A DNA stretch of 64,000 bases from Naegleria gruberi (taxonomy: Eukaryota). The stretch lies in NCBI GenBank assembly GCA_000004985.1, contig GG738854.1. The stretch is one strand, 5' to 3'. The notes under the pieces are model-generated. The model worked only from the letters and a program-made list of their open reading frames with translations. It was not told the DNA's origin and did not search any database. This document shows positions 974-54,961 of the stretch, piece after piece. A program made the position numbers and the translations under genes. Position 1 is the first letter of the stretch. Each line of letters opens with the position of its first letter.

Positions 974-974
974 A

Positions 975-2325: not shown

Positions 2326-2439
2326 TTTTTTTACAAAATATTTAAATATTTAACAAAATTTAATATTATTCCAAAAATTACAAAATAAGGAATTTTAAAC
2401 TCCTTCCTATTATCTCTAATGTGAAATATCTCTTTTTGA

Positions 2440-4121
2440 TTATTTTCCAAAACGTTTGTTAATAAAATTTTCATACAAGCTACTCTTTTTAAATCTGACA
2501 AAACTTCCCTTTTGCATATTTCTGATAACTTCCTCCTTAGCCTTATCAAAGGTTCTCATATTTGGTTTGGCAAGGTTTTTAGAAATTTCATCACGTAGAG
2601 CACCTGGAATATTGACCTCGAATGCTGATCCAATTTGAATATAAGTGTCAAAGAGATTTTTCGAAACTTCTTTCAGTGAATGGTCATCATCAATATCCAA
2701 TCCCTTGTAATGTTCCACTTCCATGCAAAACATCAAGCTCTCAACGTGAAATTCTCTCACTAAAAATTGTTTGAAAACCTCTCTAGCATTCACATCAGTT
2801 AAGAAAAACTCAAAGGTTTCATAAAGTGGTATAATTGGCTGCTCAGTTTTGGTTGTTGGAATTGGGTTTCGTTTCCTAAAGATGTTGAATTTAGACATGT
2901 CCATATTACGAGTCCATGTCGAAGAGAGTGGGAGAATAATGGAAATGAAAAAACTTCCTAACAATTCAATACCGAGGAAATAACCAATGGTTGGTTGTTG
3001 AGGCCAAAATTGATTCGGTACTGCAATTAAAACAATCATTGGTATGGCCACAACGAAAATACTGAAAAACAGCATGATTGTCATTTCCTTTCTAATGGAG
3101 AAGGCATCATTAATCTTTCTCATTTTCATTAAAAGATATCCAAATGGAATAATCAAAATAATGGTAATACAGACATAAACTCTGACAGCAATACCCTCTT
3201 GCTCATTACAACGTTTCTGACATGTTGGGTTGATAATATCAGCAGAAAATAACAGTACCATATGTATGATAAAAATCAAAGTTGCCCAAGTCAATAGCAC
3301 TACACTCAATAATATAACAAGAAATCTCTCAGAGAAGTAAAACTGATTCTTGAACAATTTAGAATACTTATCACTGTTGGCTACCGTCGTGTAGAGTGGC
3401 ATCTTTTTCAATCCAATATTACTATCGAGAGCAAAAGAGGTCACATCGCTCGAAACATCTGAACTGTCCAATAAACTTTCTCCCAATTCAGCTGCTAATC
3501 TTTTTTCTCTCCTATTGTTTCTTCGAATGTATGATGAGTTAAAACTCTGTAGAGCTATTGGTGATGATACCTCTTCATTCTCTTTCATAATTTGTGACTG
3601 AGCTTCAGCCAATTTATATTGCATAATAGTTCTGTAGCATCTGAAAATATATGGCAAAAAGTATGAAAATTGAATGAAACCAACAATGTAATACGTTATT
3701 GGGCAAACTAAAATCAAATCAAAATATAATCTCGAATACCTTTCCAATATTTCCAATAATTAAATTATTCGAATCTAAATTAAAATCCTTACATATAGGC
3801 CAAAGCAATAGATCCCGTAACTCCAGAAATTAATAATAAAAATACAGAACGATCCTTCAATGGCTGCTTATTTCTCCTCCAAATTGTCAGTGAAAAGGCA
3901 ACAACATAACACAACAATCCAAATCCGAAAATAAATCCCAACACATAGACTCTCCACGATTGATGAGGAGGAATTCTATTAATTCTCGATATATATAAAG
4001 GATAGGCATATGAACATTGATCCAAAATATCATGAGTTTGATCCTGATTCCAAGGTATTGGAGGTGAAACTATTATCGATGATAATAACTTGGTCATATT
4101 ATTCAGAATCGTGATGGACAT
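2440..4121 (-). CDS. Seven-transmembrane receptor with C-terminal RGS domain (GPCR-RGS hybrid), 2 exons (4121-3789 and 3756-2440)
   Basis: Multiple hydrophobic helices are followed by an RGS-domain-like C-terminal region (FLTDVNAREVFKQFLVREFHVESLMFCMEVEHYK ... GSFVRFKKSSLYENF). ORF 3789..4121 supplies the N-terminal TM segments. Confidence 0.7.
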
Positions 4122-12628: not shown

Positions 12629-13489
12629 ATGAGTCAAAGCCCACCTTCTGTTACATCCTCTATTGAAAACCAATTTTTGGATGACCAAATCTTTATCGGA
12701 GTCAGTGGTATGATTGGTTCAGGTGAGTATAATATCAATTTCGTCTGTTGTTTAACAATAATTTAATTAATAATAGGAAAGGTAAATATTTAGCCTATTT
12801 TTGTAAATTCATAAAATCAATATTCTTTAGACCACTCTCGCTAAAGCACTCGCTGAAAAGATTGGAGTTGGAGTACATTATGAACCAGTTATTGATAATT
12901 CCTACTTGGCTGATTTTTATTCTGATATGAAGACTTATTCTTTCCGTTTGCAAGTTTATTTGTTGAATAAGAGATTCGAACAACACCAGAAAATTATTTG
13001 GGGATCAAATGGAGGAGTTCAAGATAGAACTATCTATGAAGATGCTATCTTTGCCAAGGTTTTGATGGATACTGGAATGATGGAAAAGAGAGATTATGAA
13101 ACCTATGTTTCCCTTTTCAGAAACATGTCGAAGGTATGTTGTTATTGTGGTGATTTTTAATGAAGCCTTTTATGTTAAAATAGTTTATGAAACACAATAC
13201 AATGATTATTCACTTGGATGTTTCTCCAGAAACAAGCATGGAAAGAATCAAGATGAGAGGAAGAGAATGTGAAAGTGGAATTACTCTCGAATATCTTCAA
13301 AAGTTGCATAGTGGATATGAAGAATGGCTCACCAAGATTTCAAAGATTATTCCAGTTATTAAGGTTAATTGGAGTCAATTCAGAAGTCTTGAAAATGTTT
13401 TGGAAGAAGTTATGAAAGCCTATAATCAAATTCAAAATATTCAACATGTTACTTTTGAAAATAAGGATACCAGCAGTACAGTTCTCTAA
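12629..13489 (+). CDS. Deoxynucleoside kinase (dCK/dGK/TK2 family), 4 exons: 12629-12722, 12777-12781 (5-nt microexon), 12831-13133, 13184-13489
   Basis: The P-loop GMIGSGKTTLAKALAE is only reconstructed if the 5-nt exon GAAAG (between a GTGAGT..AATAG intron and a GTAAAT..CTTTAG intron) is included. Later motifs are DRTIYEDAIFAKV and LDVSPETSMERIKMRGRECESGITLEYLQKLH. Exon lengths sum to 708 nt in frame. Confidence 0.8.
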
Positions 13490-14930: not shown

Positions 14931-16042
14931 TTATTGCTCAGCAGATTCATCTTCCACTTGCTCACCTTGATTCTCTTGATGTTTCCTCTTTCGTTTTGGA
15001 ATGATTTTTTCAAGAGCTTGACCCCAAATTTCAAAATTAGTGAGCTCTGGTTTGGTTTGTTTCAATTCGATACAATCAGCAATGATTTCTACACATTGGT
15101 TGGTGGTCAGAACACTACATGCCTTCATGTCAATGTGCTTATCGAGTGGGAATTTAGCTGTTGGAATGTTATATTCTTTGGTGGCAATTTCATTACACAG
15201 ATTCTTGTGTCTGTTTCTATCAATAATACCTCCACTATTATTTTGTAATGAATATTTAAATTGTAAAATTTGAAAACTTACATTACATAGACATGTCCTT
15301 TTTCAAATTCTGTAATTTCATTCTCAGCATCAGCAGAAAGATAAATCACCTTATTTTCCTTCAATTTGTCCTCAAATTCCTTTGTAAAATGTTGATCTGT
15401 TAATTTCATCATCCACTTTTCAGGAAATCCTTCAAATTTCTTTAAACTATTGTATAATTCACCTTGTAAGGATGTAAATGTCATATAGAAAGGATTCTCC
15501 ATTCTCTTATAGGCAGCATAGCATTTTCCAAGTTGTTGAGCCAATGAAATAACTTCATTATTTGTCATCTTATCATTAAAGGAACAATCCACATTTATGC
15601 AAACATTGCAATCATTGGTTATTCCATTTTCTGTGGCTTGTTTCAACTTGTTGATGAGGTTCTCCTTTTTCATTCTTTGTGAACGAATTCTTTCTTCCTT
15701 CTTCTTTTTATTTTCTTCCACCAATTTTTCAAATTCCTCTGGAGCCAATTCGTCTCTCATCTTGGTGAAAAAATCATCACTATTCTTTTTCTTTTGTTCT
15801 TGTTTAACTTCCTTTTTTTGCTTTTTATGTTTCTTGAAATTATTCTTCCTGGTTTCCCATCTTTCCTTTCTCTTTTGCAATTTTTCATCCTTTGATGGTT
15901 TGTTTTCCGAATTTTCAGAAGTGTCATTACTGGCTTCCGATGGTGGTAATGTTATATTATTTTCTGCCATTGTTGATTGTTCCGATTTTTGTTCTTGCTC
16001 GACAAAATTTGATGAATTTCCTTCTGTTTGATGTTCAGTCAT
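14931..16042 (-). CDS. TRM10: tRNA (guanine9-N1)-methyltransferase Trm10/TRMT10 (SPOUT), 2 exons (16042-15282, 15234-14931; 47-nt intron)
   Basis: Lys-rich N-terminus, then VCINVDCSFNDKMT...FYMTFTSL... Across the GTAAGT...AATAG intron this continues ..HVYVIGGIIDRNRHKNL.. (matches TRMT10 VYIIGGLVDHNHHKG). Exon lengths 761 and 304 nt sum in frame. Confidence 0.85.
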
Positions 16043-16140: not shown

Positions 16141-19100
16141 TTAAATGACAAATTCATTTTCAACCTTTTCATTGATAGTAATGAAAGGAATTTGTGTTTC
16201 CTTAACAATGGAGGGACCATCAACTGGACACGATTTACCAATCATTTCATCGAGACGTTTACTGGCATTCTTGAATTCTAATTGCCAGTAGAGTTGAGTC
16301 TTTTCACTTCCATCATTCATTGCTTCGGCCAATTCTAAACGAGCCTTGTGCCAATTTTCATAGGTCTCTTCAAGGAGATTGAGCCTTTTGTAGAGGGCAT
16401 TTCTTTGGTCTGCTTCTTCTTGGGTAAAGATTGGATTGATTTCTGACAATTTGAATCTTCCTTGTTTGATATCTTGGATGTTAAATTCAATTTGCCTAAC
16501 CTTCATTTGAAGTGTTGCAATTTCACTTTCCTTTTCTGCCTTATCTACTGATCGTTTGAGTCTTTCTAACTTTCTTTGTTTCTTGAGTTTCTTTTCTTCG
16601 AGGTGTGTCAAGTTTTCATTCACTGCCTCTTCGATAGCAGTTTGTTGAGCCTTATCTTCAATGGCAATCAATTGATTCTTGAGTTGGTGCTTGTTGATTC
16701 TATAGAGACAGTTCAAGTGGAATTTTTGACCTGATGGGAATACATAGAAGAAGTAATTCTTTCTCTCGTTTGGATCTTGAAGGTTAGGAAGGAGGACTCT
16801 TGATTTACACCTTTCACAAGTGTCATCATAGTCAATATCATAGTAAATATTCATAGATGATAAATCATTTCTGATCAATTCAGCATCATTGGTGGCATCT
16901 CTCATTTGGACTTCAACTCTGTTATTTTGGAATGAATAGGTATCCAAAATCGATTCAACATCTTTCAAGAGTTCATCGAGTTGAATCTTGGATGGGAAAT
17001 ATTTGATAACATCATCCAACAATAAGACATCACCAAAGTCTGTAATGAGATCGAGTGCTTTCTTGTAATTTTCTTCCTTGACATAGTATTTTACAATCTT
17101 GATAGCAAGTTTACGTTTGAGTTCTGGGTCTTCAACAAATTGAAGAACTGTTTCTTCTGCAAGCTTGACATTGTTAACTTTAGAGTCAAGAGCCAAGTCA
17201 ACTGCTTCCTCATAGAGTTCCAAAAGTCTGTATAACAATACACATGCTTTCCATTTTCTTCCTTCAATAGCCAATCTGAGTGCATATTCTTTAGTAAAGT
17301 AGATATTTTCGGATTCTTTAGTTTCCTTTAGGTAAGTTTCTAACAAGTCAGTATTTCTTTGATTGACCAGCAAGTAGACAAAGAGATCGTGAACAGTTCT
17401 ATTTTCATTCTTTTGATCCTCAATACACCATTTCAAATATTCTAATACTTGAGATTCCTCTTGTCTAACAGATCTTCTTCTTGTTTGACCAGCTTGAGAT
17501 CTGGTAATGTAGTCATATTTCAATATGGCTGGGACCAAATCTCTTGGGTTAAGGAATTGCAAACGTTTGAATGATTTAACAATTTCATCTCTCTTCTCAT
17601 AATTCATCAAAAGTGGAGTGTATCTGTACCAAATCAAGTTTTGAGGAGAAATACCTTCAGACTTTTCAGAGAAGGCATTTGGCTCAGTACAAAAGCTATT
17701 CAGGATAGTGTAGGCATTCTCGTAGTATCCAAGTTCCTTAGAGTGATTGGATTCGTATTCAGAGCTCTTAGCCATAGTAACACAATATTGAATAATTGTC
17801 AAATAATCACCAATAGCACTTGCAAAGAAGAGGAATTCTCTGACAAAGTTATTACTCAAAAAGATGTCATAAACAACGTCCTTGGCTTTTGCTAACAATT
17901 CCTTCTTATTGTAGGTAAACTTTCTCATAACAGCCTTAATTTTGTGAAGTTGTTGTTCTGCCTTGGTTTTTTCTTCCAATTGTTCTCTGTATTGATCTTC
18001 AGAGCATGCAACAGTAATAAATTTACCCATGATATGTCTCTGTTGATTCATCTTGAAGCACAATAATTCAACAATCCAAACAGCAAGAATGACACTCTCA
18101 GGACATTCTTCAATTTTCTTATCATTCTTCTAATTTCAAAGTTAGAAAATTCATAAAATTATTGCAAACTTACAAATCTGTGAAGCATATAGTACAAGTA
18201 GTTGTAGAGACCATTCTTCTTATCTTCTGGATCAACTTCCATGAATTTCATGGCAATTTCTTCAAAGTTTCTGTTTGTTCTGGCATAATCAAGAGCAGCA
18301 GTGTTGAAATCTCCCTTCTTAAAATGGTGATCAGCTTTAGCAGAGTAGATAGCCATTCTATTTTCCTCTGAGTTCATATCAAAAAGAGCTGACAAGTGAA
18401 GGGCCATCTTGAAGTATTCAGACTTGATCGATTCCATATCCTTGTCTTCAATTTCCAAAGCAGCATCAAGGAAAATTCTCCAAAATCCTTTAGCTTGATC
18501 ATCAATTGAAACTCTGTATAATTTCGAAGAGTTGAAAACAAAAACTGATTGATTACTCTCTTCTTTGGATTTGTCAATAAAGGATCTGTCAATCTTTACA
18601 CCGAGTGTATTAATCATTCTAACACCAAGAACGTGCTTACTCAACAATGAATACCTTGAATTACTTGGTGGAAGGAATGCAGGTTGCATAATAACATAAA
18701 ATTCGTCCTTGTAGCACACAAACAAATGGAAGCTGTTGAGTTCAATATCAACTGGTACATCATTTGGATTCTTGTGAGGTAATTTACCGGCCTTGTCGAG
18801 AGTCTTTTGAGAATCAGCGTAAATTCTACCAAAGACAACTTGTTTGGCTGTAATACAGGCAAAACAGAGTGAGTCATAGATTTTAAGAACACTCTTGTGC
18901 ATAATCTTTGGCTTCTCCAAATCGAGATGATCATCCTCATCGTAATTCTTGAAAGATGGAATGGCTGATTGCTCTGGGCCATACCTATCGAAAATATCAG
19001 TAATTTCACCACTTCCAGTAAATACTGCAACACCAGCAACACTTGAAACAAAAGCCATAAATTCGTTTCTTTCCTTAATTTCTGCAAATTCAATACTATC

Positions 19101-20517: not shown

Positions 20518-23215
20518 TTACTTCCAATATCCTGCAAATCTGTGCATAATATCATGAACTGCAAATAGGGTTCTTTCAGAATCTGTAATAACACTCCTCA
20601 TGAATTGAATGGCTTCCTCCTCAGTGAGTTCGAGACATAGACGTTGCTGAACTGTGAGAATGTTAAGGAGCTGCTCACCAATTTTTGAATCTCTCGAAAT
20701 ACCATGATCAATATTTGGAATACCTGCATCAATCATTAAAATGAACAAATTGAGAATCATTCTAGAGTGTTGTCTTAATATATTGTAGGCGCTGCAGCAA
20801 TTTTTGATGAAACTCTTGTACCTTTCACTTCCAGAACCTCCCATTCCCAAGACCATGTCAGCACAGAGTTTCATTGGTGGAGGATACGGTTTTGGATCGT
20901 GGCCTAGAATGAATCCAAAATCAATGTGGAATAGTTTTCCATCAGGAGTCAGCAAAATATTATCCAAGTGTCTATCTCCAATTCCAAGAATATATGTAAT
21001 GACACAATATCCTGCACAACTCTTCATAAAGTTATCGAGAACTTCGTTCATCTCTTGATGAGATTTGTTCTTGTTCTGGTCTTTGAGCCATTCTTCAATG
21101 CTTTGTTTTTCAATTATTTTGGCAAATGGCGTGCTTGGAAGAACACACTCCAAAAATCCCTCCTGCTTTCCACAAGCTAACACTCTGTATGGTGTCAACT
21201 TTAAATCCATACCATTGTCTTTCAGAATAGTATCCATAGTATTAATAATTTGAATAATTAACTGATCTTGTCTCAAATCGTCGCCAATTTTAAAGATTGC
21301 ATGATATGTGCTCTTAGGACTGGTCTTGAATGCCAACTTCATTGGTCTAGCATTACTACTGAAAATAGTCACACCTGTAGGATCTACATTATTAACAGAA
21401 ACTCTTGGATCCAATGGAAGTATCAGTGATGAATTATCTTCAAATATACCATCCCATGAAGAGACTTTTCTTTCTGCTATTTCTCTGAATTTTTCCTTTA
21501 CAATTTCAGTGCTATTTCTATTGGTCTTACCAAAGAGACAAATTTCACTAAGGTTTTGAACCATCTTTGTTTGTCTTTGTAACATTTTTACAGTCTCGTG
21601 TTGTTTTTTCTAAATTAAATTTTTAGAATAATGTCATTCAATGTATTTAAACTTACCGTCTTGTAATTTTCTAGCACTCTAGCTCTGTAAGAATAGTAAA
21701 ATTCACCCATTATGCTATCCTCACATGCTATTGTCAAGTACCAGTATAAATCGTTCGATACCATTAAAGATCTCTCTGCCTTCTCAATTAAAAGATCTGC
21801 CAATTTACAAGTTCTCATATCATGCTCATATCTCAATGCTTGAACTAATTGGAGTAAGACAGACAATATATCTTGTTCTGGGGCGTCTTTCAGTACATTA
21901 ACAGCGTGATTTCTTACAGAATCCACTCCTTTGAAATATTTACTCAGCAAGAACAGAGCATCAGGTATATCAATCTTGGTCCAACCTTGCATTAATGAAG
22001 CAGCTTCCTTAGCTTCTCTGTCAATACTCCAATCCACAGATCGTAAAAATTTTGTAAGAGCTTTGGTTCCAATTCTCTTTTCTGATTGCAAGAATTTTCT
22101 ATACCTCCACAATAATGTCTTTTCATCCACTGAAATTTCTTGCAATGGTGACTTTTTCACAATTGCCTCAAGCATTTTCTTATCCCTTGCTTCTGGGTAA
22201 AGTAATAGATTATCATCCAAATTCATGGTCATCTTGAAATGCTTTACGGCTGATGGATTTTCCTTATCCCTGGCAACTTCTGGGTCTATGAAGAATTGAA
22301 CACCCTTTGTTTCAAAGCACTTGATCATTTGCTCTGCTCCATTGATATTACTCTGTTGTTTAAAGCTATTGAGTGTTGTAGGAGGAACTTCACGATTGAG
22401 CATGGAATAAGTTTCATTTTCAAAGAAAATTACTGGTGCTGAAAAATCACAAAATTCCAAATCCAAAAAAGCTATTCCTTTTCTCACAAGCAGACCCTCT
22501 CGTCTCATATTATTGATGGATTTTAATGAGGCCTCTCTCAGCCACTTTGAATTTTCATCCCATATATCCTTACAGGAATCAATTTCAATTTGAGTGAGTA
22601 AATCTGTAACAATTCCATCTTCTTCAAACACCGATAAAGGATTAGGTGCTACCCGTGGTGAAAGTAGGCATTTGTGATTGCCCGATCGCATAAGTCTTTA
22701 GATTCAGTTATTAATTCCATAAATTTCATCAAAATTACATACTTGCTTCTCAAATCAAAAACTGAATAGGAAGAACTGGCAACTATAATAGGCTTTCTTG
22801 GAGTAAATATATCATAAATTGTAACACATAATACAGTATCTACTGGAAGTTCGCTATACTTTACAGGAAATGAAATCCATTCCTTCCAACTGAAAATATT
22901 AATAATACAAATCAATAAATTCATACCTTTTCACAGATTTCATTTGATTTTTGTAACATGTCCTTGATGGTGGACATATCAGATGATTATTTACATAAAG
23001 GCCACATTCTACAAATAAATCCTCTAATTTTGGCAATAAAGAAGAGGAAGGCATTGTCGGATCAATAATAAATTCATTAATTTGATTTGCATAATTATTC
23101 TGATTCACTGAAACACTAAAATCAATTAAAACACCACTATTTGATTGATCAGTAGTAATTTTTCTAGCAAAGAAATCAGCATCCAACACTCCATCAATAT
23201 CTCCACTACATTAAT
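20518..23215 (-). CDS. VPS34: Phosphatidylinositol 3-kinase catalytic subunit type 3 (VPS34), multi-exon (C2, helical/PIK and kinase domains); 5' end approximate
   Basis: Kinase core HIDFGFILGHDPKPYPPPMKLCADMVLGMGG and IFKIGDDLRQDQLIIQI. Helical domain LLQLVQALRYE, DLYWYLTIACED. C2 region LYVNNHLICPPSRTCYK...WKEWISFPVKYSELPVDTVLCVTIYDI. All are collinear with human PIK3C3. Small GTAAGT introns separate the ORF-track pieces (one at ~21609-21655). Confidence 0.9.
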
Positions 23216-29733: not shown

Positions 29734-31021
29734 TTACTTTTCTGGTTTTGGTGATTCTAAATTTCTGAGGAACTCTTCCTCTTTGCTTGAAGGTGGACAA
29801 ATAGAATTATTCAATGTGACAAAATCACCTTGATTATACAAACTCACTACAACAAACCAATTTCCATCAGCAAGTTCTTTTGTTAGACCATCAAAAGCAA
29901 CACCCATACTTCTTCCATTTCTGAAATATTCAACATAACCTAATGCTGTGTTTATATAAATACCAATTCTGTCACCTCTTTCACAACGTTCTCCATAATC
30001 CACTTGAGTCTTTTTTGAATACTTTTTCATTGACCAAACATTATATCCGTATGAGTTGGCAATAAATCCAACAGTCCATGAATCATTACTATTATTTTGG
30101 TTTGAAGTTTGTAAGAAAAATTCAACTAAATACATACAAATATGATGTTTTTTGTTTGCTGATACCAATTACAATATTGAAATTCTTAGTACTCTCAATT
30201 GTTACTTCATAATAATTCTTAATGTGGTATTTCAGTAATTTCATATTTCCGTAATATGTTGACAATTTTGAAGCTGTTATTTGTAATTCGTCTATTCTTT
30301 CATTTTCGAATGGTTTGTAAGATCCTACGGATGGTGATGTAATTTCTGGTCCAAGATAATTATTACCATCAGCACCAGCAACTTTGAGAATGTAATTATT
30401 ACTTGATGGAAACCCATTCACTTCCTCACTATCAGCAAAACATTCTTCCTCGATCTCTGGTTTTTCATCCAAATAACTCCAATCATCCATTTCAGAAGGT
30501 TGAGAGGACGAATAGTCCATAGCAATAATTGGATACCTTGCTGATACACTGTACCAATTCTTTCCAGTAGATTCCTTGCATATTAAGGTTTTTCCTCCAT
30601 CCACAACTACAACATTTGGGTGGCAGTTTGCCATTTGGAATCTCTTCTTTAAAAGCCACTTTTGAACAGTAAAGTAATCCACCAATTCTGTTAATCCATA
30701 ATATGATGCTTCCAATTGAACAGCCTTGGCAGTTACTGGTTGATACTTTACAGAAGGCAACATTGTAAGTGATAAATTACCTCCATTTCTCAAGTAATTC
30801 AAAAGGAAATGAAAATATGTTCCATCCCGATCAATAAATATATTTCCATCTCTATCTCGATCAACAGGGTGTCTTCCATTTGTCATTGAAGCCAACACAT
30901 GTTCCAGGTCATTCTTTCCAACCTGTTGAGTCAATGTAAATCTACTCGTAGTAAATAATTTACCACCCACATTCAATGTAATAACAGAAGGTTCCGACAA
31001 ATCAGCCGATAACAAGGACAT
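29734..31021 (-). CDS. BTB (KCTD/T1-type) + SPRY domain protein, 2 exons (31021-30138, 30088-29734; 49-nt intron GTATGT..AATAATAG)
   Basis: T1/BTB_2 region ITLNVGGKLFTTSRFTL...DRDGTYFHFLLNYLRNG. SPRY region after the intron: NDSWTVGFIANSYG...GDRIGIYINTALGYVEYFRNGRSMGVAF...WFVVVSLYNQGDFVTL. The in-frame ATG is at 31021 (the ORF-track start is upstream). Confidence 0.75.
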
Positions 31022-34748: not shown

Positions 34749-37700
34749 TCAATCTCTTTTATTGACAAGTTCAAAAGATGCAACATTAGAATACGATGTC
34801 AAATATTTGCAAATTGATTCACATGATTTGAAAGATTGCTGATTATCAAGAATGAAACTGAGACATGAAATGATTCTATCGCAAGAAACATCATGATTCT
34901 TAAATTCCTGCTCTGAGAATTGTTTCAATATTTGGAATGCATGACCAACATATCCAACAGCATCAGATTGTGAAAGATTTTCATGAGCTTTCCAATATTG
35001 AGTGGTGAAAAGATCAAATACCTTTGAGTATTCTTGGAATTTGTTATTCTTTTTGGAATTTTCCAAAGAGTACAACCATTCGTCATCTTGATCATCTAAC
35101 TTTTGAGCAATGACATCATATATTGTGAAAATTGAATCGTCTGAAGTTTCGGTTACTTTTTGAATCCTATCTAGAGGTCTATACACTAATTTCTGTGAGG
35201 AGGAAATTGAGCAATCGTCAGTAATGATTTTAACATTGAATTTAGAGGCCAATTGAGAGGTCTTTGCCTGTTCAGAAACTGAGCCAACCATACTGAAATA
35301 TCTTGCAGTTGAAGATCCAATATTTCCAACATAACCATCTCCAATAGAAACACCAACCCTGGCTGTGATTTTCTTTTGTAAACTTTCAATTACCTTTACA
35401 ATTTTCAAAGCTGCATCAAATGCCTTTTCTTGAAGTCTTACATCTACACTGTTACTATTCAGTGATAATTGAAATTCATCACATGAGAAGACGTTTAAAT
35501 TTCCTTGAGATAGTTTTACAATTGGACCAAGAAGGTTTACAATATCTCCAAAAATAGTTGTAATACTGTCAGGAGATTTTGATGACAGTCCATCAATTTT
35601 GACATGAATAACTGCACAACCCTTCTTGGATAAACCCATCTTGAATAAATTGGAGGCGTGCTGACCCTTTTTCATTGTGCTCTTACTTGAAAAGTGACTT
35701 CTGGAGGCGTTTGAGGCAGAAATTGAATTTCTTGATATTTCTGCATTCTTTTCCAATTCTTGTTGATTTTCAACATGTTCTAAGTGTTCATTTTGAATCT
35801 GTTCAAATACTGATTGAGGAATGAAAGTTTTAATTTCAGCAAGCCACTCAACTGTATTCTTCAAATTATTGAAAATTGAGTTCACTTCTCTAAACATGGA
35901 ACTGTTATTCGAAACACTACCCAAATCAAGAACTTTGATTCTTTCGAATTGCTTCTCCAAGAACTTCATAGGTCTCGAAACAACTAGTCCAGTAACAAAA
36001 CTTCCAACAATTCCAAGAACAATAATTCCAACAGTGACACCAATAGAAATTGAAGTTGTCAAAATCAAAGCTTCAGTCACCTCTGATTCGTACAAAACAA
36101 AGAAAATGTTCCACTGCATATTTTCCAAAACATACTTGTACGGAGTAATGATATAGCTAACACCATCAGATTCTCCCACAATTTTCATCACAGATGGCAA
36201 AATACTAAATGTTCTATTGTTCAACTCGTAGAATTGTTTCATTAGTGAACCAGCATTTCTCGACTTGACATCAAAGATGTTTGTGCTATTTAAACCATCT
36301 CCTGAAATGGTATCGATGGATCCACCAATGACAATGAAATTGTCCTGAGCTACCAGAACGTAACCTCTTCCCAGTAATTCAATCTTGGAGAGAAAGTTTA
36401 CAATCGTTTCTAGTGAAAGATTAACTTTGGCCAATCCAACCAATGATTTCGTCTTGTTTAGTTTGTAAATTTCTGGATCGTACATTAATTGAGAATAATA
36501 AATGGCAACTGTACTTCCCAAAACCTTGTATGGTTCTCCATACACTCCTTCCAACCCCTTTTCGTAATAGTTTTTCAATGTATAAATGAAGAAATCTTGT
36601 TTGGCAGGTACGTAAGGAGTCAAGTCAACTGTAGAATTGACTTTTACAATGTCTCCTGTGGTGATGTTCACAATATCTCTCAATGGTGCCTGGATATCCA
36701 AGAGGGTAATATGTATCCGTGTTATCCAGCCAACGCTGGATTGAAAGGATTTTGTCAGATGGGATCCACTGTAAGTGGATCCCATCAAGACAAAGCCAGG
36801 ATAAAATGGATAATGGATGGATATTTCCGATTTTATTGGATTCTGCAAAATACAATTTAGTACACAGAAGAGCTGCTATTATTTCAGTTGGCAAACTAAC
36901 ACAGAAAGACTCATATCTACAAGCAACAGATCCAATTCATCACGTGAATCAAGTCAACATATTGGAATTGGTAGAATTGGTAGAATCGGAAGTTAATCAC
37001 AAATTTATTCATCTAGTGATTGTATTAAGAGAGATCAAACAAAAATAACAATAAATGATATGATTATAATTCAAATTGGAAATAGTTGGAAAAAAAGCAA
37101 GATTTAATAGAAGAGTTTGAGTGAATGTGCAGTGTTATTTTCTTTGCAGAACTAATAAGAAATGCACAAGATGGTAAATTGCAAGATCTTAGCCATGAAT
37201 TCCATTGGCTATACGAAAGTTTTGAATCAGTTTAATGATGGTATTGATTGGTTACTCGCCCCCCTTTAATTTTATCCATTAAATCCAGATTTTTCCTTGA
37301 TTTATCTGATTTATCCAGATAAAAATCCACTGGCAGTCGACGGAATCCACTTACATCTGACAAAATCCTTTCAATCCAGCGTTGGCTGGATAACACGGAT
37401 ACATATTACCCTCATATCCAAAAGGTTGATAGGCAAAAACTGGAAATGGATTACTCGTGGTTCCACTAATAGTATAGGTGTATCTGGATGGGAGAGGAAC
37501 ACTGAAGAAGAATCCACAACCAGTAGTTCGAAATTCTACAAACTTTGGAAACAAGTAATTTCTAAACATGGGAATGGTCACAACACCTGTGGTATATTCT
37601 CTGGCCATGGTTTTGGTCAATTTGGCGATTGGTGTCATAACACCATCTAGATAGGTTATAATCTTTCTTCCAGATTCGTTTATGAGCTTGGTCGACAAAT

Positions 37701-37998
37701 CATTAATTGCCTTCTCTGTTACCAGATAAGAAGATAGCCAAACCAATAAACACCCACTTAGAATCATTACTGAAATAATTGAAACAATAAAGAGATTGAG
37801 TGGAATAATACCTGTGCAGCAAGTACGCGGCTGTGTCTTTGGATTGAGTGGTTCTTTGATGGCCACAACGGATGGAGTTGTCTGTTCCTCATACTCACTT
37901 CCTGATGGTGCAACTTTAGTCATTGAAACTGAAGGATGATGATGATGTTTTTTCTTATTGTTTTTCAATACAATTACGAAAGAGCTGCTAATTTGCAT
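34749..37998 (-). CDS. Receptor-type nucleotide cyclase-homology protein (N-cyto - TM - Cache-like extracellular domain - TM - class III cyclase-homology domain); reading frame interrupted by a 712-bp transposon at 36702-37413
   Basis: ORF 37998-37351 gives an N-terminal cytoplasmic segment, TM1 (IIPLNLFIVSIISVMILSGCLLVWLSSYL) and the start of a Cache-like sensor. ORF 36848-34749 continues the sensor, then TM2 (ILTTSISIGVTVGIIVLGIVGSFVTGLVV), then a cyclase-homology domain (..TTIFGDIVNLLGP.. and RVGVSIGDGYVGNIGSSTARYFSMVGSVSEQA). The ends of both ORFs are encoded by the transposon TIRs. Confidence 0.65.
36702..36790 (+). repeat. Left terminal inverted repeat of the MITE-like element (contains internal mini-palindrome GGATCCACTGTAAGTGGATCC)
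   Basis: Exact inverted match to 37413-37354; diverges after a 10-nt insertion. Confidence 0.8.
37330..37413 (-). repeat. Right terminal inverted repeat of the MITE-like element
   Basis: Reverse complement of 36702-36761 and beyond. Confidence 0.8.
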
Positions 37999-38231
37999 TA
38001 GGGAAATTAAAAGTTGTTTGAGGGAAATGATGGAAAGAAGTTTCGCTTATTAGATGCAAACTGTCAATTACTATCAGTTTATTGTATTAATATTAATACG
38101 AAGCAATTGTCTTTTGCCATTAGTATGGAGTGACTGTCAATAAACCTCAATTCTGACTTGGGCAGTACGCATGTTATTATGGATTGAAAACTATTCAACA
38201 AATCTCGTGCTTGAGTACTCTCCAATTAAAA

Positions 38232-39924
38232 ATGTCGGAACCAACTAACAGCAACATTCTGGACGGCACGCAAGAAATTACGTGGGAGGAAACGCCTAAT
38301 AAAGAAGCCGAGGAAATTGAAGAAATACTTCGACGATTTTTGCACTCATTGTGTGATATTTATAATACAAAGTCTAAAACAAATCATACAATCGGTGCTA
38401 TATGTGATACAATTTTCACCAAGAATGGAATTGAGTTGTTTGTTGATAGTTGCACAGAGAGTAAGGCAAAAGGAATTGAAATAATTGAACAATTATTAAT
38501 GATGGAGCCTGCTAATAGTTGTTGTGAAGGGAAAATTATTGAGGAGGAGATTCAACAACTAAATCACAACGACAACACTAGTACCTACAAAAAAGTACTG
38601 GCTGAAGAAAATAGAACATTCTTGGATCAACATAATGTAAAGTTGGATGATAATACTTTCAATTTTTGTGTAAACTTTCAAATATGTTTCAAGATTGAAC
38701 CAACAACCAGTAATATTGCAGACACAACAAGGATTTCCAGATTTGATGGCACTTCTTCATCCAATACTCGAATATTTTCTCTATTCGATCCTTTATTAAA
38801 CTATTCTAAATTCACAAAAGCTGGAATAGAAAACGAGTGGACATATCTGACTTGCATTATTGAAAATGCATGTTTAAGTAACGATCAGCTTTTATTCCAA
38901 ACGTAAGTACTAGTTCTGTTTAAAACAACAACTTTGAAGAGATGGCCCCTTTAACATGGTAGACGAATGTTTGGATCGAGCCCTGAAATTTTGTGACATC
39001 CCATCCTATTCTTTCACGTCATCTTTGAAAAGGGATTGTCATGTAATTGCTTCAGTTGATACCACTCTAAATCACATATGCCTTGTTATAGAACACCAAC
39101 GAGACAATTGCTCTTCCATTTGGAAACACAAAGACTTTGCAAAAATCCTCTTATTGATGAGAACATGTTTGAAATCTTCCATGTTAACAGCTCAAAGAAA
39201 CAGAAAACATTGCCCAAAGCCGTTAAGAACATTTGGAATTTTGTCTTCTAGAGACAATATATTCATACTCTGCATGCAAGCCGATTTACTTTCTGTTGAG
39301 AATGTTCAAATCGAGACTTTTGGAATTGAGTACGCATTGACCTCACATGCATTCTCGTTGAACAAAGAAGAGGAAAGAGAACAATTTATCGAGAAACTTA
39401 CAGCTCATTTAGATTATTTCAGAGCTATTTCTCTTGTTGAAAAGGAATACCAATTTTTGTCATCACCTAACACATCAATAAGCAAATTGAGAAGAGGACG
39501 CTCTGTGATGGTTTATGAAAGTTTTTTAACATCAGATAATAATATGATCAATGTTTATCCACAACTTTCAAGTATGAAAGAATATTTCAAAAATTATGAT
39601 TTTGAATTCAAAAAAGAAATTGGTATTGAAAAACCAATGTTTGAAAAGCAAACAACACATTTAGCGGTTATCCCTTATTCGAAACTGAATGAATTTGAGT
39701 TGAATTCGTACACCAAAGTAATGGTTGTTGGTTTTGTAGCAACAACCAATTTGCAAGGTTTTATATTTACTAAAAACAAAACTTCCAAATTGCAAAAAAA
39801 GGATTCAAATTATACAAAATATACTGCTGATGATGAAGAAAAATTGACAAAGATGATGAAGATTACAAAGAAAAACCAAATACATTCAATAAGAGAAATA
39901 GGAATACCAAAGGAACAGGATTAA
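38232..39924 (+). CDS. Hypothetical protein, probably 2 exons (38232-~38906 and ~38944/38956-39924)
   Basis: Two consecutive same-strand ORFs (240 and 322 aa) separated by a GTAAGT-containing ~40-nt segment; no recognisable domain. Confidence 0.4.
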
Positions 39925-39974
39925 AGAAACAAAAAGTATCAACCATCACCAAAGAAATTAATTACTCTGATAAT

Positions 39975-40781
39975 TTGAAAGAAATAGTTCAAGGATATGG
40001 AATTAATGGTAAAACAGCTACCAAAATACGAAATAATGACAAGATAGCTCTATATTTTAAACTTGAAAGTGGGTTTTTAAAGATAGTTCACTATTTTGAT
40101 AATAGTTCAGAGAATGTGAATGGTATGGAAATTGTCAAATCCATTCAACATGACAATATTAATAAGATTTTTCAATTTAAGAAACACTCTATAACTAGTT
40201 CGCAATTGGATGAATTGTTTTTTGAAAGCATTCCACTTACAACCCAATTAGAACCAACAATTTTTGTAACATTTTCACAATTTGTTGGGGATATTGTTAC
40301 TTTCTATATTTACCTTAACCAGAAAGATTTCAACACCAAGTTATTGTGTTTTATCAAGTTAATGATGGACGCTATTGAGGCAATTAACATTTTACATGAA
40401 AATAACATTATTCATAGTGATATTTCTATTAGAAATGTTGGTGTGTTATTTACAAAACCTGTCATGACAGCTCATGCCAAAGAAAAAAGTACAATACTGG
40501 AACAATTGCCGAAAGTTTCTAACTTTAATTTCATTTTACTTGATTTCAATCATTGTAAAGTGGAAGGACAAGAACAAGCCACATTTCCAGAATGTAACAA
40601 CAATTCTGAAAATATGTTCTTTCCATTTATATCAGAGCCATACTGTCCTCCAAACGAATTAGTTCAATTTACAAAAGAACATGATTATTATAGTATTGGA
40701 TTAGTGTTGGCACAATTATTTTTGACAATTGTTTGCAATGTGCCAATTTCTAAAATTTTTAAATGTAAAAGGGAAATTTAA
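39975..40781 (+). CDS. Atypical protein-kinase-like protein (degenerate catalytic motifs)
   Basis: Kinase-fold landmarks: catalytic-loop-like INILHENNIIHSDISIRNVGVL, DFG-like LLDFNHC, APE-like YCPPNELV followed by DYYSIGLVLAQLFLT. The ORF-track start is TTG, so the true start is uncertain. Confidence 0.5.
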   Translation: MKEIVQGYGINGKTATKIRNNDKIALYFKLESGFLKIVHYFDNSSENVNGMEIVKSIQHDNINKIFQFKKHSITSSQLDELFFESIPLTTQLEPTIFVTFSQFVGDIVTFYIYLNQKDFNTKLLCFIKLMMDAIEAINILHENNIIHSDISIRNVGVLFTKPVMTAHAKEKSTILEQLPKVSNFNFILLDFNHCKVEGQEQATFPECNNNSENMFFPFISEPYCPPNELVQFTKEHDYYSIGLVLAQLFLTIVCNVPISKIFKCKREI

Positions 40782-41295: not shown

Positions 41296-44202
41296 ATGGT
41301 GGAAAGAAAACAAAAAAAAATGGCTCCAAAGCGAAAGCTTGATTTTCTAACGATTGAAATTGAAGCTAACCATGATCAACCACCAGTAAAATTATCAAAA
41401 CCATCATCATCATCAGAAGAAGAAGAAGACAATGTAATAATTATTTTGGATGAAACACATGCTTCCGATTGGCTAGAAATTAAACTCCAAAGCACACAAT
41501 TTCTTGTGGCTCTCCTTCCACAATTAGATTCATTTCTACAAGAATTTGGCTACACCATCATTGATGATCCGATGGTGAGAAGTTGTCTGGCTAGAATTAC
41601 TGGAAAATGTTTGTTGCCCAATTCCGAACGTTATGCAGAGTTTGGCAAAATTAATTTAAAAGCACAAAGGCTTATTATTAGTGATAGAACTTTTGTTCTA
41701 CACCTTTCCGATTCGCTGTACAGGCTGGGTGAATCCTATATTCAATCAATAGGAGCAGCTTATCATAATGATATTGATGTGGTTTATCGATACAAAAACC
41801 ATTTAAACAAATTTATCTTCATGAAACCATCAACTGCTATTCAATTGTTAAGAAAAAATCCTCAAACTCTGTTATCGATTCCTGAAAGATTTTATGAAGA
41901 TTCTGAATTTCTTTCAGAGGCTATTTCTACAGAAATAGAACTATTGGAAAAAATTCAAGATCCTACCAAGAATGAATTATTAATACCCCCAATACTACTA
42001 TGTCAAAACAAAGTTCTTACGAAAGCACTTGAACTTGGATTATTCAAGCCAGTTAAAAGTAGTATCCAATACGAAAGTTTAAACAACAGAGAATTAGTAA
42101 TTACTTTACTCAATTTTGGATGTGATGTAATGTTGTATAGTATTTTACAACTTTATTCCAACGACAAAGAAATTTTAAAGATATGTAATGAGAAGTTTCC
42201 ATATTTAATTAACAACAACCAATATTTGAATCTTGTAGAATCTCCAACTAGCTTCAAGTATCTCGACCATGAAACTAGAAACGACAAGGATTTTGTTTTG
42301 AAAATAGTTGAAAAATGTCAGATTTATAATTACCTTTCTTCTGATCTTCAGAAAGATCGTAGTATTGCTTTAAAAGCAGTCCGTGGAAACCCTGGTTATT
42401 ACAAGTACTTACCCAGAGAGCTCAGACGTGACAATGAGATCGCTTGCATAGCAATTTCTAATAATCCAGACATGTACTTTTATGTATCAGAGAATTTGAA
42501 AGATGACCATAATATTATTGAAATTTTCAAAAATAACATTCACAAGTTGAGTCATTTTCATATTGATTTAAGATATTTACCTCCTGATTTTAGAAAAGAT
42601 AAGGAAATAGTATTAAAATCAGTTAAAAGTAGTGGGGAAATGATATTATTGGCATCAGAAGAATTATTAAACGATAGAGAAGTACTTTTATTGGCCTGCA
42701 ACACATATACATACTATTACGACAAGAAAGATTTTAGAATTCCATACTTTATTCCAGAAACATTTCGAAAGGATGCCTCCTTTATGTTAGAAATATCAAA
42801 GACAAATCCTATTTGTTTTGAGTTGGTTCATGAGGAATTAAGGAACGACAAGACTTTTCTATTAGACTTTTTCAAGGTAATTGAACGATTTCTCAACATG
42901 GCATTAACTACAGATGATGATGATTATAACGATCGAGATAACGTTGAAAAATTGATTATGCAAAACGTCTTTAAACTCATTCCTAACAAACTTCTTAATG
43001 ATAGGAATTTTTTATTGGAATCTCTAGAAATTAATGTGACATTGATTAATTTCTTTCCTTATGAATGGGGAAATGATATTTCAGTCATAACATTAGTGTT
43101 GAAACAGAAGCCTGAATATTATAACAATTTAACCAACTTTAGGGAACACAAGGATATTGTCATGCTAGCGCTTGCTGATCCAAATATGAAGATTCCATCT
43201 AAATTCATGTCTGACAAAGATATTGTAATGAAAGCAATGGAATATAATGCATCAAAAACATTTAAAGTAGCTCACAAAAAACTACAAAAAGATAGAGATG
43301 TAATTTTACATTATTTAACGCACAATACTAATAGCTGTTATGGGCAGACCATCAATGATATATTTTTTCAAAATCCAAACCTACGAAATGACCGTGAAGT
43401 AATGCTAGCTCTTTTGCAACATAGAATGTTGCACTTTAAACATATTGACGAAAAATTGAAAAAAGATCCAGAGTTTGCTTTCCAACTGATTGAAAAAAAA
43501 TGTAATGTTGATGTAAGAGGAACTAAAATATCAAAACAAGAACTCATGAAAGCAAATTCCATTGATTCATTCATAGAATTTTATCTCAAAGATGAAGATG
43601 ATTCACACTTTTCTTCTGTCAAGAAACAAGTATTTGGTGCATTAATCAAGCTTTTTTCTAATGAGAAAAGAGTAACAGAATCACTTAAGGTTCACCACCA
43701 AAATTTATTTAAAAATGACAAAGAATTTACATTACAATGCTGTTTGTATGAAGGATTTGGTTCCTGTCTGGGTAACGCATTTGTAAATGATGTGGAGTTT
43801 ATGAAAAGAGCAACTTTATTGAATTTCAATAATGTAATATACTCAAAAGATTTCTTCATGGAATGTTGGACAAGTTACTTAAATGAAAAACTGAATTACA
43901 AACGAATGAGGAAGTGTTTCAATTATTTGAGTAGTCATTCTTTTGATACAACAGGATGGAACGAGGACCCACGATCACAAAGGGTAAACACTTATTTGGA
44001 TTCAAATATTTTGAAAGGTTGTAATCGTGTGACTACTGAAACTAGATCTACTATTTTAAAATTTTTGACAGGTATTTCAATTCTTGAAGAAAAAGTTCTC
44101 ATTCACGAAGAAGTCACTGATGGTCAAAAGATAAAAATTTACTTCCATATGGATCACACAAACAAAAAATGGAAAAAGATTATGCAGAAGCAATCCCTAT
44201 AA
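41296..44202 (+). CDS. DUF4116-repeat protein, 968 aa, intronless
   Basis: At least 12 tandem ~28-35-aa repeats of the form L(R/K)(N/D)D(K/R)E(I/V)(V/A)L.A(V/I)..N...(F/Y).(Y/F) (e.g. LRNDREVMLALLQHRMLHFKHIDEKLKKDPEFAFQLI; LQKDRSIALKAVRGNPGYYKYLPRELRRDNEIACIAI). Acidic N-terminus. Confidence 0.7.
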   Translation: MVERKQKKMAPKRKLDFLTIEIEANHDQPPVKLSKPSSSSEEEEDNVIIILDETHASDWLEIKLQSTQFLVALLPQLDSFLQEFGYTIIDDPMVRSCLARITGKCLLPNSERYAEFGKINLKAQRLIISDRTFVLHLSDSLYRLGESYIQSIGAAYHNDIDVVYRYKNHLNKFIFMKPSTAIQLLRKNPQTLLSIPERFYEDSEFLSEAISTEIELLEKIQDPTKNELLIPPILLCQNKVLTKALELGLFKPVKSSIQYESLNNRELVITLLNFGCDVMLYSILQLYSNDKEILKICNEKFPYLINNNQYLNLVESPTSFKYLDHETRNDKDFVLKIVEKCQIYNYLSSDLQKDRSIALKAVRGNPGYYKYLPRELRRDNEIACIAISNNPDMYFYVSENLKDDHNIIEIFKNNIHKLSHFHIDLRYLPPDFRKDKEIVLKSVKSSGEMILLASEELLNDREVLLLACNTYTYYYDKKDFRIPYFIPETFRKDASFMLEISKTNPICFELVHEELRNDKTFLLDFFKVIERFLNMALTTDDDDYNDRDNVEKLIMQNVFKLIPNKLLNDRNFLLESLEINVTLINFFPYEWGNDISVITLVLKQKPEYYNNLTNFREHKDIVMLALADPNMKIPSKFMSDKDIVMKAMEYNASKTFKVAHKKLQKDRDVILHYLTHNTNSCYGQTINDIFFQNPNLRNDREVMLALLQHRMLHFKHIDEKLKKDPEFAFQLIEKKCNVDVRGTKISKQELMKANSIDSFIEFYLKDEDDSHFSSVKKQVFGALIKLFSNEKRVTESLKVHHQNLFKNDKEFTLQCCLYEGFGSCLGNAFVNDVEFMKRATLLNFNNVIYSKDFFMECWTSYLNEKLNYKRMRKCFNYLSSHSFDTTGWNEDPRSQRVNTYLDSNILKGCNRVTTETRSTILKFLTGISILEEKVLIHEEVTDGQKIKIYFHMDHTNKKWKKIMQKQSL

Positions 44203-50720: not shown

Positions 50721-51473
50721 ATGCCATCACATAAAATACGAGAAAATTCAACAACTCCATCCATCATTCTTTGTATTATCCTTGGACTTTCACTAATTCA
50801 ATGGGTATCTTCTGCATCATCTCCTCTGCCGAAATGTGCCTCCTGTGGTTCAATTCCAAGTGATTTATCATTTTGTAAAAATTATGTACCAACGAGTGGA
50901 AATATGTATGTTTGCAATCATCATTATTGATTTTAATTGTAATTGGATTGATAGTTGTATACCAGATAAATATTTAGAGGTGGAAAAGAATATTTCCAAT
51001 ATTTATGATAGTACTAATCAATTTTTGCCATTCGAAAGTTCATGTAGAGATGCTTGGAAGAATTATGCATGTGCAAGAGCTTTTCCACGATGCACAATTT
51101 CGAATAATGGAACATCGGATATCTATACTCCCTATGAAATTTGTTACTCTGTCTGTAAACAGTACGCTTACAATGTATGTAAATTGTAATTTGTGAAATT
51201 TCAATTTTTACTAATTATTGACTGTAACTATTTTGTTTCAACAATATTCAGTGTTGGGCTAGAGATGGTGGAGCAATTAATTGGGCTATTCAACCAATTT
51301 GGGATGTTGCCACATTAAACAAGAAATTGGACTATTTCTGTTCACAGGAAGTTGGATCTGATGGAGCTATTTGTTCATTGGGAGGTAAAAAAATTAATGG
51401 AGGAAATTCAATTTGGAATTCTATTACTCTTATATCTTCAATTGTTGGATTTACTTTATTAGTAGCCCTCTAA
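50721..51473 (+). CDS. Secreted Frizzled-type cysteine-rich-domain (CRD)-like protein with C-terminal GPI-anchor-like signal; 3 exons (50721-50905, 50955-51174, 51252-51473)
   Basis: N-terminal signal peptide IILCIILGLSLIQWVSSA. Cys spacing CRDAWKNYACARAFPRCT...PYEICYSVCKQYAYN resembles the Fz CRD (C..l.f.lCs.y.P.C...PCrs.Ce.v...C). C-terminus GGNSIWNSITLISSIVGFTLLVAL-stop (small residues then a hydrophobic tail). Introns GTATGT..GATAG (49 nt) and GTATGT..ATTCAG (77 nt); exon lengths sum in frame. Confidence 0.5.
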
Positions 51474-53588: not shown

Positions 53589-54961
53589 ATGACTCAAAAC
53601 CATGAGGAGCAGCAGAATCATCAGGAGCATCATCAGATGATGGAAAACACTGCAGAGACAAACCTTACTTCCTCCATAACGAATGATGAAGATTATATTA
53701 TTGTTGATATTTGTGATTCATGTGCTGCTGCTGGAAAACAAGATTGTTCGATTTCAATGCCTCAATCAGCAATATCAATTTCAGAGAGGATAAATGTTAA
53801 GGAAAAACAAAAGCATAAACAATATCAGAAAAAGGAAAATGTTCAAAAGCAAGAGACGGTTGTGAAACAGCCAGAGATTGTGTTATTTAATACTCCAAAA
53901 CAAGTATTGGAAAAATTTAAAACTGATGGGGTACGGAAATCCAAGTTGACCTTTGATCAAATGACAATCCTATCCTTGTTTGCAGGAATATTTATTGGAC
54001 TGGCTAGTGCTTTGGGATTGGTTGTGGGTGGGAATGTACCAAGCATTGAGAAAGAAAATCCTGGATTGCAGAAATTGTTAACTGGAATGTAGGTTTAGTC
54101 TCATTTCAATTCTAATGTTGTTGAAAGTGTTTTTCCATTGGGATTGATACTTATTGTAATGACTGGTTCTGAACTATTCACAGGAAATGTATTAGTGGTT
54201 CTTATTGGGTTATTTTCAAGACGGTGGCGATCTAAAAAGTTTCTTCTCCAGTAAGTAATCAAGATTCGAGTTAATTGACCATCAAATGATTAGATATGCT
54301 TTATTCTCAAAGAATATTCTGTTCAGTTATGTTTTCAATTGTGTGGGATCGTTTTTATTTGCTTATTTCTTCATGTATTTACCTCAACCTTGTTGCTCTG
54401 CCTATTGGATTAGTTATGTGCAAACTATTTCTGAAAATAAGGTGAAAAAAGCATTTGGAAGTTTAGTTCTGCTTGGAATTATGTGCAATGTGTTAATTAC
54501 CATTGCTGTTTGGTGTGCAGCAGCAGCAACAACTCTTTCAGGGAAATTTCTTGGCATTTGGTTCCCAAGTAAGTTTAATCTACGTTCATATTTAATTGAA
54601 ACTTGACAATTTCACAGTTTTAGCATTTAGTTGTTTGGGTTATGAACAAAGCATTGCAAATGCATTCTACATTCCACTGGCAATGCTTTATGGAGCTAAT
54701 ATCACAGTATACGACTTTTTAATTACAAACATGATTCCAGTAACTATTGGAAACATTATAGGAGGTGCATTAATCAATGGGTGCCTAATGTATTATGTTC
54801 ATGATTTTAGAGTCAGAAAACCAAAGGTGATATTTTCTTGGTGTAAAAAGTTGTGGAAACGTCTCACAAGTAAGAAAGTCGAAATGTTGCCAACTACTAC
54901 TACACCAAACAAATCAATAGAAATGGATTTATCGACAAATAATATTATTGGAATAAAATAA
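53589..54961 (+). CDS. Formate/nitrite transporter (FNT, FocA/NirC family), 413 aa, 4 exons (53589-54088, 54128-54250, 54294-54568, 54618-54961)
   Basis: ILSLFAGIFIGLASALGL.., FPLGLILIVMTGSELFTGNVLV.. and GYEQSIANAFYIPLAML...ITNMIPVTIGNIIGGAL are hallmark FNT segments. His/Gln-rich ~100-aa N-terminal extension. Introns 39, 43 and 49 nt; exon lengths sum to 1242 nt in frame. Confidence 0.8.

Follow-up and report, generated by a model that had tools for sequence, protein, structure and literature searches.

A receptor-cyclase gene of Naegleria gruberi with an exon probably interrupted, not long ago, by a non-autonomous DNA transposon of 712 bp

Introduction

In a stretch of 64,000 nucleotides from contig GG738854.1 of the Naegleria gruberi assembly GCA_000004985.1 (the window), a gene for a receptor with a nucleotide cyclase domain is split in two by a 712-bp segment that is bounded by inverted repeats. 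What is this segment, how did it arrive, and what does it do to the gene? An initial annotation, made from the letters alone, described it as a transposon resembling a miniature transposable element with inverted repeats (MITE). It left two options for the gene: the segment either lies inside an intron whose splice sites could not be placed, or it is an insertion that disrupts the gene. Here, we analyze the structure of the segment, reconstruct the site before insertion and weigh the alternatives. With a probability of roughly 0.8, we interpret the sequence as the recent insertion of a non-autonomous cut-and-paste transposon into an exon of the receptor-cyclase gene.

Results

Structure of the element

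The segment and its repeats comprise the following features.

36702-37413: putative non-autonomous DNA transposon, whole element, 712 bp, 34.6% GC, without a protein-coding remnant, with perfect inverted repeats at its ends and an 8-bp duplication outside them
36702-36761, plus strand: left terminal inverted repeat (TIR), 60 nt, starting GAGGGTAATATG
37354-37413, minus strand: right TIR, 60 nt, the exact reverse complement of the left arm
36694-36701: left copy of the target-site duplication, ATATCCAA, which reads TTGGATAT on the coding strand
37414-37421: target-site duplication, right copy, ATATCCAA
36762-36842, plus strand: left subterminal region, extending the inverted repeat with degenerate sequence; TGGAT at 36776, 36807, 36814, 36818 and 36837, and also at 36737 inside the TIR
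37272-37353, minus strand: right subterminal region, with ATCCA at 37274, 37283, 37313, 37325 and 37345, and also at 37374 inside the TIR
36758-36786: perfect 13-bp palindrome (GATGGGATCCACT gta AGTGGATCCCATC), created by a 10-nt segment present in the left arm only and holding the ATG of a public gene model
36965-36986, plus strand: internal tandem repeat of GAATTGGTA, 2.4 copies
37298-37315, plus strand: tandem repeat of TGATTTATC, two copies, in the right subterminal region

The two terminal arms are complementary at all 60 positions (100%) and enclose 592 nt. When the window was searched with each 30-nt half of an arm, with three mismatches allowed, matches were found at these two sites only, and none of 100 shuffled versions of the window contained any. 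Just inside the perfect 60 nt, the left arm carries 10 extra nucleotides that the right arm lacks. The inverted repeat resumes past this indel in a degenerate form, with 17 nt at 88% and then 30 nt at 77% identity, and similarity between the arms is recognisable to about 110–140 bp when gaps are allowed. The extra 10 nt of the left arm give rise to the palindrome listed above, which also carries two BamHI sites (GGATCC).

Copies of the 8-bp sequence abut both arms, and the identity between the flanks ends at exactly 8 nt on each side. At the local base composition, the chance of such an 8/8 match is 3.5e-5. The subterminal regions are rich in one short motif: TGGAT or its complement ATCCA occurs 16 times in the element, compared to 3.1 expected. 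The copies cluster within ~140 bp of each end, and their orientation is mirrored between the two ends.

The perfect outer repeats, their continuation past the indel, the flanking 8-bp repeats and the short internal tandem repeats all agree with the initial annotation. Its statement that the interior has no open reading frame (ORF) holds in part. Small ORFs are present, the longest of 109 aa, but none has a protein relative. We compared all peptides of at least 18 aa from the six frames of the element with 5.8 billion proteins (E <= 10), and the only match was the local gene model P0001. The element thus contains no decayed transposase either.

Long perfect TIRs, subterminal repeats, an exact 8-bp duplication and the lack of coding capacity together support the structure of a non-autonomous cut-and-paste DNA transposon, as originally proposed; all the structural hallmarks are present. 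With its length of 712 bp (below ~800 bp), TIRs, target-site duplication and absence of coding capacity, the element also answers to the usual description of a MITE.

An inverted repeat of this size could instead belong to the gene or its transcript as a native component with a function, such as a regulatory hairpin or a structured RNA, and not be mobile DNA. The minus-strand RNA of the element does fold far better than its shuffled counterparts (-256.5 kcal/mol, z = -12), but a perfect inverted repeat of 60 nt is by itself bound to fold strongly. The element matched no Rfam family at threshold. In addition, four homologues of the gene lack the segment and are colinear across the site, and a native hairpin would leave the flanking 8-bp duplication without a role. 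We therefore regard a native hairpin as extremely improbable. A known structured RNA or ribozyme was likewise discarded, as no Rfam match came near the threshold.

The host gene encodes a predicted membrane receptor

The two parts of the interrupted gene flank the element on the minus strand.

37414-37998, minus strand: upstream half of the split receptor gene, encoding the N-terminus, the first transmembrane segment and the beginning of the sensor domain
34749-36693, minus strand: downstream half of the split receptor gene, encoding the rest of the Cache-like sensor, the second transmembrane segment, a linker and the class III cyclase-homology domain

The joined halves match the N. gruberi predicted protein P0001 (678 aa, encoded on a 665-kb contig) at 100% identity. 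Further matches are four paralogues from N. gruberi and P0002, a homologue from a metagenome (49% identity). The paralogues begin with MTK..., equivalent to about position 37923. Pfam detects the cyclase domain weakly. A profile of the receptor family matches class III nucleotide cyclases in the PDB (E = 2e-9) and aligns with a protein annotated with dCache_1 and Guanylate_cyc domains over 453 columns, with a probability of 98.9%.

Residues 59-93 and 402-436 form hydrophobic, presumably membrane-spanning segments; the insertion comes after residue 195. The element is thus positioned between the two transmembrane segments, inside the extracellular sensor domain. Judged by these predictions, the gene is intronless and encodes a two-pass membrane receptor, with a Cache-like (dCache-type) sensor outside the cell and a divergent class III cyclase domain inside it. 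The initial identification of a receptor-cyclase gene with an insertion in its extracellular sensor region is supported by the cyclase profile matches and by the transmembrane segments on both sides of residue 195.

Two paralogue models outside the window have unusual structures. In P0005, RCC1 repeats are fused to the C-terminal two thirds of the receptor only, and in P0003 the cyclase core is short by about 50 residues. Further members of the receptor family may be damaged or mis-modelled.

The insertion site is in an exon

Deletion of the element together with one copy of ATATCCAA leaves the coding strand with TTT GGA TAT CCA GGC ACC ATT (FGYPGTI). A homologue of the gene is found on L001, a 4946-bp contig of the JGI metagenome 3300002220 (gene at 820-3210), which we used as the empty-site reference. 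At the same point, this homologue reads TTT GGA TAT CCA GGA ACC ATT. The two sequences agree in 7/7 residues and 20/21 nucleotides, and the homologue holds one copy of TTGGATAT at the target point. The predicted sequence of the empty site is ...CCTTTTGGATATCCAGGCACC.... At the protein level, P0002, P0003 and P0004 are colinear with the joined gene and ungapped across the site.

The match to the empty site and the ungapped homologues indicate that the ancestral gene had neither an intron nor an insert at this position and contained a single TTGGATAT. The 8-bp repeat is accordingly a true target-site duplication in an exon. Homologous cyclase genes, to which the initial annotation had pointed for an empty site, are indeed uninterrupted at the site, and the one on L001 has a single copy of the target. 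Of the two options left for the gene, an element inside an existing intron is ruled out by the colinear, ungapped paralogues and by the metagenomic homologue, and it is the gene-disrupting insertion that finds support. A duplication of 9 bp, or a shorter one with shifted boundaries, was also rejected, based on the bases that flank the repeats and on the single-copy site in the homologue.

The receptor homologue on L001 is a single, uninterrupted exon of 796 aa (49% identity) that adjoins a Ras-family gene. The contig is of environmental origin, and its source is probably another heterolobosean amoeba. At the N. gruberi site, the 8 nt of the target sequence GGATATCC (36692-36699) are palindromic; they are shifted by 2 nt relative to the duplicated TTGGATAT.

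Broken frame and a second lesion

Two further features of the minus strand bear on the reading frame.

~36681, minus strand: second lesion, a single additional nucleotide (coding strand ATT-G-AGA) that follows 13 nt downstream from the duplication
36783-36785, minus strand: start codon ATG of the public model P0001, inside the transposon; the first 28 residues of the model are transposon-encoded

The ORF of the receptor is interrupted after codon 195, within the sensor domain. From there, the upstream frame continues for 20 codons of the repeat before it is ended by a TAA (37353-37351, minus strand). The initial annotation correctly gave the upstream reading as ...FGYEGNMYPCYPANAGLKGFCQM followed by a stop and the downstream reading as ...HITL joined to LDIQAPLRD..., both on the minus strand. 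It was also correct that no common frame is restored when the element and one duplicate are removed. The cause lies in a separate lesion. Immediately following ...PGTI, the homologue has ATT-CGT-GAT but the window has ATT-G-AGA-GAT, and the additional nucleotide shifts the frame between ...PGTI and RDIVNITTG.... Without it, and with the element removed, the gene is a single ORF of 842 codons, colinear with the paralogues. The frame mismatch is thus explained by the extra nucleotide at ~36681 and not by a faulty duplication. A 2-nt deletion at this position was rejected as the less parsimonious explanation, since an extra residue is absent there from all paralogues.

Across ~2.5 kb of coding sequence, the insertion and the extra nucleotide are the only two defects. 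It is possible that it results from error-prone gap repair during integration, that it is a compensatory change, that the consensus is in error, or that its position close to the insertion is a coincidence.

An assembly or cloning artefact, such as a clone that is chimeric or palindromic, or a repeat collapsed in assembly, would agree with the position of the extra nucleotide near the repeat boundary, and the locus is represented by a single assembly (one member sequence, one contig). However, an artefact would not produce an exact 8-bp duplication of host sequence, the removal of which restores 20/21 nucleotides of the homologue. Nor would it produce symmetric subterminal arrays, and the base composition of the element is ordinary for the locality. 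An artefactual origin is therefore very improbable.

In its assembled form, the allele most likely has no function. Public models leave the upstream 195 codons of the ancestral gene uncovered, and P0001 as modelled is an annotation artefact of the insertion. Its start codon inside the transposon conceals a split, probably dead, allele in the large receptor-cyclase family, and the model is corrected here.

Proposed course and age of the insertion

In the mechanism that we propose, a transposase encoded elsewhere in the genome would recognise the 60-bp TIRs and the TGGAT subterminal repeats. It would excise the element from a donor site and join its ends to a target cut with an 8-nt stagger at TTGGATAT. 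Gap repair by the host would then yield the two copies of ATATCCAA. The arms are identical at 60/60 positions and the duplication at 8/8, and the 842 codons of the gene are otherwise intact, suggesting that the insertion is very recent.

Some observations weigh against this reading. None of the 29 ORFs of at least 200 aa in the window encodes a transposase. Membership in a mobile family is deduced from the structure of the element, with no second copy found in the window, the JGI metagenomes or IMG/VR. The extra nucleotide, finally, could be an error of the assembly consensus. The searches for further copies were of several kinds. Within the 64-kb window, exact arm searches and those allowing three mismatches returned no second element, and a sensitive blastn comparison with the masked window gave noise only. 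A search for the tip motif and a generic scan of the window for inverted repeats with flanking duplications revealed no other such structure, and exact-pattern scans of the JGI metagenomes and IMG/VR found no copy of the element.

Possible removal of the element by splicing

It is conceivable that the transposon is real but the gene remains functional, with most of the element removed from the transcript as a new spliceosomal intron. Such a process would resemble that of maize Ds or of introner elements. The hypothetical sites are as follows.

37349-37354, minus strand: splice donor GTAAGT (hypothetical use), at the inner edge of the upstream repeat, with the first in-frame stop TAA inside it
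36769-36776, minus strand: splice acceptor ACTTACAG (hypothetical), mirror image of the donor region and complementary to it

Three models can be drawn. In model A, an intron of 586 nt extends from the GTAAGT at 37354 to the ACTTACAG at 36769, and 134 nt of repeat and duplication stay in the mRNA. Together with the nearby extra nucleotide, these make 135 nt, an in-frame insertion of 45 codons. Model B joins a GT at 37409 to an AG at 36690 (720 nt) and gives FGYEGTIRD..., which is in frame only if the extra nucleotide is erroneous. In model C, the same GT at 37409 is joined to an AG at 36677 (733 nt). The extra nucleotide leaves with the intron and the product is FGYEDIVNITTG....

Models A and C, as well as B after correction, each yield a single ORF without an internal stop, which counts against a loss of function. 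The donor of model A corresponds to the local consensus GTAAGT, and the first in-frame stop falls within this donor. Moreover, only one other lesion is present in 2.5 kb, and its distance from the insertion is 13 nt, which is where the frame would have to be restored; if the two were unrelated, the coincidence would have a probability of ~1%. There are reported precedents. Wessler et al. are said to have described, in 1987, insertions of Ds, Mu and dSpm in maize exons that are spliced via sites in the element ends, and the introner elements of Micromonas and Aureococcus reportedly act in a similar way (Huff et al. in 2016).

Against this, in-frame pairs of GT and AG amount to 80/240, the one-third rate expected by chance, and the 5' repeat can be read through without a stop in only one of three frames. 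Introns in the window that join ORFs cleanly measure 44–57 nt, so that the proposed introns of 586–733 nt would be more than 10 times longer. In the RNA, the arms form a perfect 60-bp stem. The donor GTAAGT is paired there to the ACTTAC of the acceptor, so that both sites would be masked. Model A would also place 45 foreign residues in a block that is ungapped in all paralogues, and the protein collection contains no full-length protein model of the gene.

Overall, we consider it unlikely that splicing preserves the function of the gene. Less probable still is the specific sequence of events in model A, where ~586 nt are spliced as a new intron, 134 nt are exonised, the extra nucleotide is compensatory and the gene is not killed. 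If the element were spliced, the locus would usefully illustrate how an intron is born in nature. Under model A in particular, transposon-driven intron gain and exonisation would have been caught in the act, in a heterolobosean lineage without reported introners.

The introners of Micromonas, Aureococcus, dinoflagellates and other lineages, which are transposons that create new introns, share several traits with the element. They are short and non-coding, have TIRs and a duplication within coding sequence, and carry GTAAGT near one end. In-frame removals can also be drawn for the element, but they depend on the extra nucleotide or bypass it, and they occur at the chance rate. Introners, however, occur as many near-identical copies that are precisely spliced in unrelated genes, whereas the present element is known from one copy. 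Unlike with introners, the frame is not open as assembled when the element and one duplicate are removed, and the putative intron exceeds the local intron length more than tenfold.

Superfamily assignment

Returning to the insertion of a cut-and-paste transposon, the source of the transposase can be narrowed by comparison with known superfamilies. A hAT-like origin ranks as the most likely, although we hold it tentatively, at somewhat less than even odds; a MULE-like origin or another superfamily with 8-bp duplications are the alternatives. Hermes prefers 8-bp targets of the form nTnnnnAn, and hAT transposases bind arrays of short subterminal repeats (PMC10368747). Both ATATCCAA and its complement TTGGATAT fit nTnnnnAn, which is weak evidence, as ~10% of sequences would do so by chance at this composition. 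The TGGAT arrays are candidate binding sites for a transposase (BED). An autonomous hAT partner would have the same ends and encode a transposase with DDE and hATC dimerisation domains; the 29 longer ORFs of the window include no such gene. It is the combination of an exact 8-bp duplication of the nTnnnnAn form with subterminal repeats that makes a hAT-type enzyme the most likely source.

The element resembles hAT elements, including maize Ds1 and the deletion derivatives of Ac/Ds, in its 8-bp duplication, its subterminal arrays, the absence of an ORF and its sub-kilobase length. With Ds, it also shares the insertion into an exon and splice-like sites in its ends. Two features argue against the hAT assignment. 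The tip GAGGG fits four of the five positions of YARNG, but its first base is G and not C/T. The TIRs of hAT elements are usually 10–30 bp long, while those of the element comprise 60 perfect bp and a further ~50–80 degenerate bp.

MULE elements likewise have long TIRs beginning with GAG or GGG and a non-coding interior. The terminal repeat of maize Mu starts with GAGATAATTGCC, and the element starts with GAGGGTAATATG. MULE duplications, however, are typically 9–11 bp, and that of the element is exactly 8 bp. The TIRs of MULE elements typically reach 100–200 bp or more, compared to the shorter ones of the element (60 bp perfect). No MURA-type transposase was seen in the window.

Two other superfamilies were tried and rejected. 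The terminal repeats of the P superfamily begin with CANRG. The duplication length would fit P, but the tip of the element is GAGGG. Merlin elements are defined by an 8–9-bp duplication and a terminal 5'-GG, in an account that does not mention Naegleria (PMC8101967). Here again the duplication fits, but the element terminates in GA and not GG.

Amoeba-related genomes provide a further comparison in the Submariner MITEs of Pandoravirus and Acanthamoeba (PMC4495683). Like the element, these are short and non-autonomous, have TIRs, are found in an amoeba-related genome and sometimes lie inside genes. They differ in being derived from Tc1/mariner, with TA duplications, in their multiple copies and in having a known autonomous relative in the host.

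Significance and genome context

CMC-EnSpm and piggyBac elements do not make 8-bp duplications. They are the only classes named for DNA elements in the repeat tables of N. lovaniensis, where DNA elements make up 0.68%; hAT is absent from these tables. Naegleria genomes are very transposon-poor, and the transposon content of N. gruberi was 0.28% in one pipeline. A structurally perfect element with an 8-bp duplication indicates that a cut-and-paste transposase of a third type, either hAT-like or something similar, was very recently active in N. gruberi. The searchable literature holds no account of MITEs, hAT or MULE families, or introners in Naegleria. The 60-bp terminal repeat is a concrete query for the family and for an autonomous partner. 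As a mutation, the insertion is of an ordinary kind, though rare in a transposon-poor genome.

The other genes in the window are ordinary eukaryotic ones, including peptidase M49, RGS, ribosomal L2, PI3-kinase, P450, kinases and proteins with DUF4116 repeats. Two further regions of the window were of note.

38184-40781, plus strand: three ORFs (240, 322 and 268 aa) spaced ~50 nt apart; the first gap is intron-like (GTAAGT...TAG) and the last ORF is weakly protein-kinase-like
41296-44202, plus strand: a 968-aa protein consisting mostly of DUF4116 repeats (nine matched stretches, E = 5e-58)

The three ORFs at 38184-40781 are probably one gene split by short introns. Introns of the window that join long ORFs cleanly lie at 21610-21656, 18130-18173, 15235-15281, 30089-30137 and 1722-1778 on the minus strand, and at 13134-13183, 54569-54617 and 50906-50954 on the plus strand. 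Their donors are GTAAGT or GTATGT and their acceptors are mostly TAG. One of the window introns links ORFs for PI3Ka and PI3/PI4-kinase domains into a single PI3-kinase gene.

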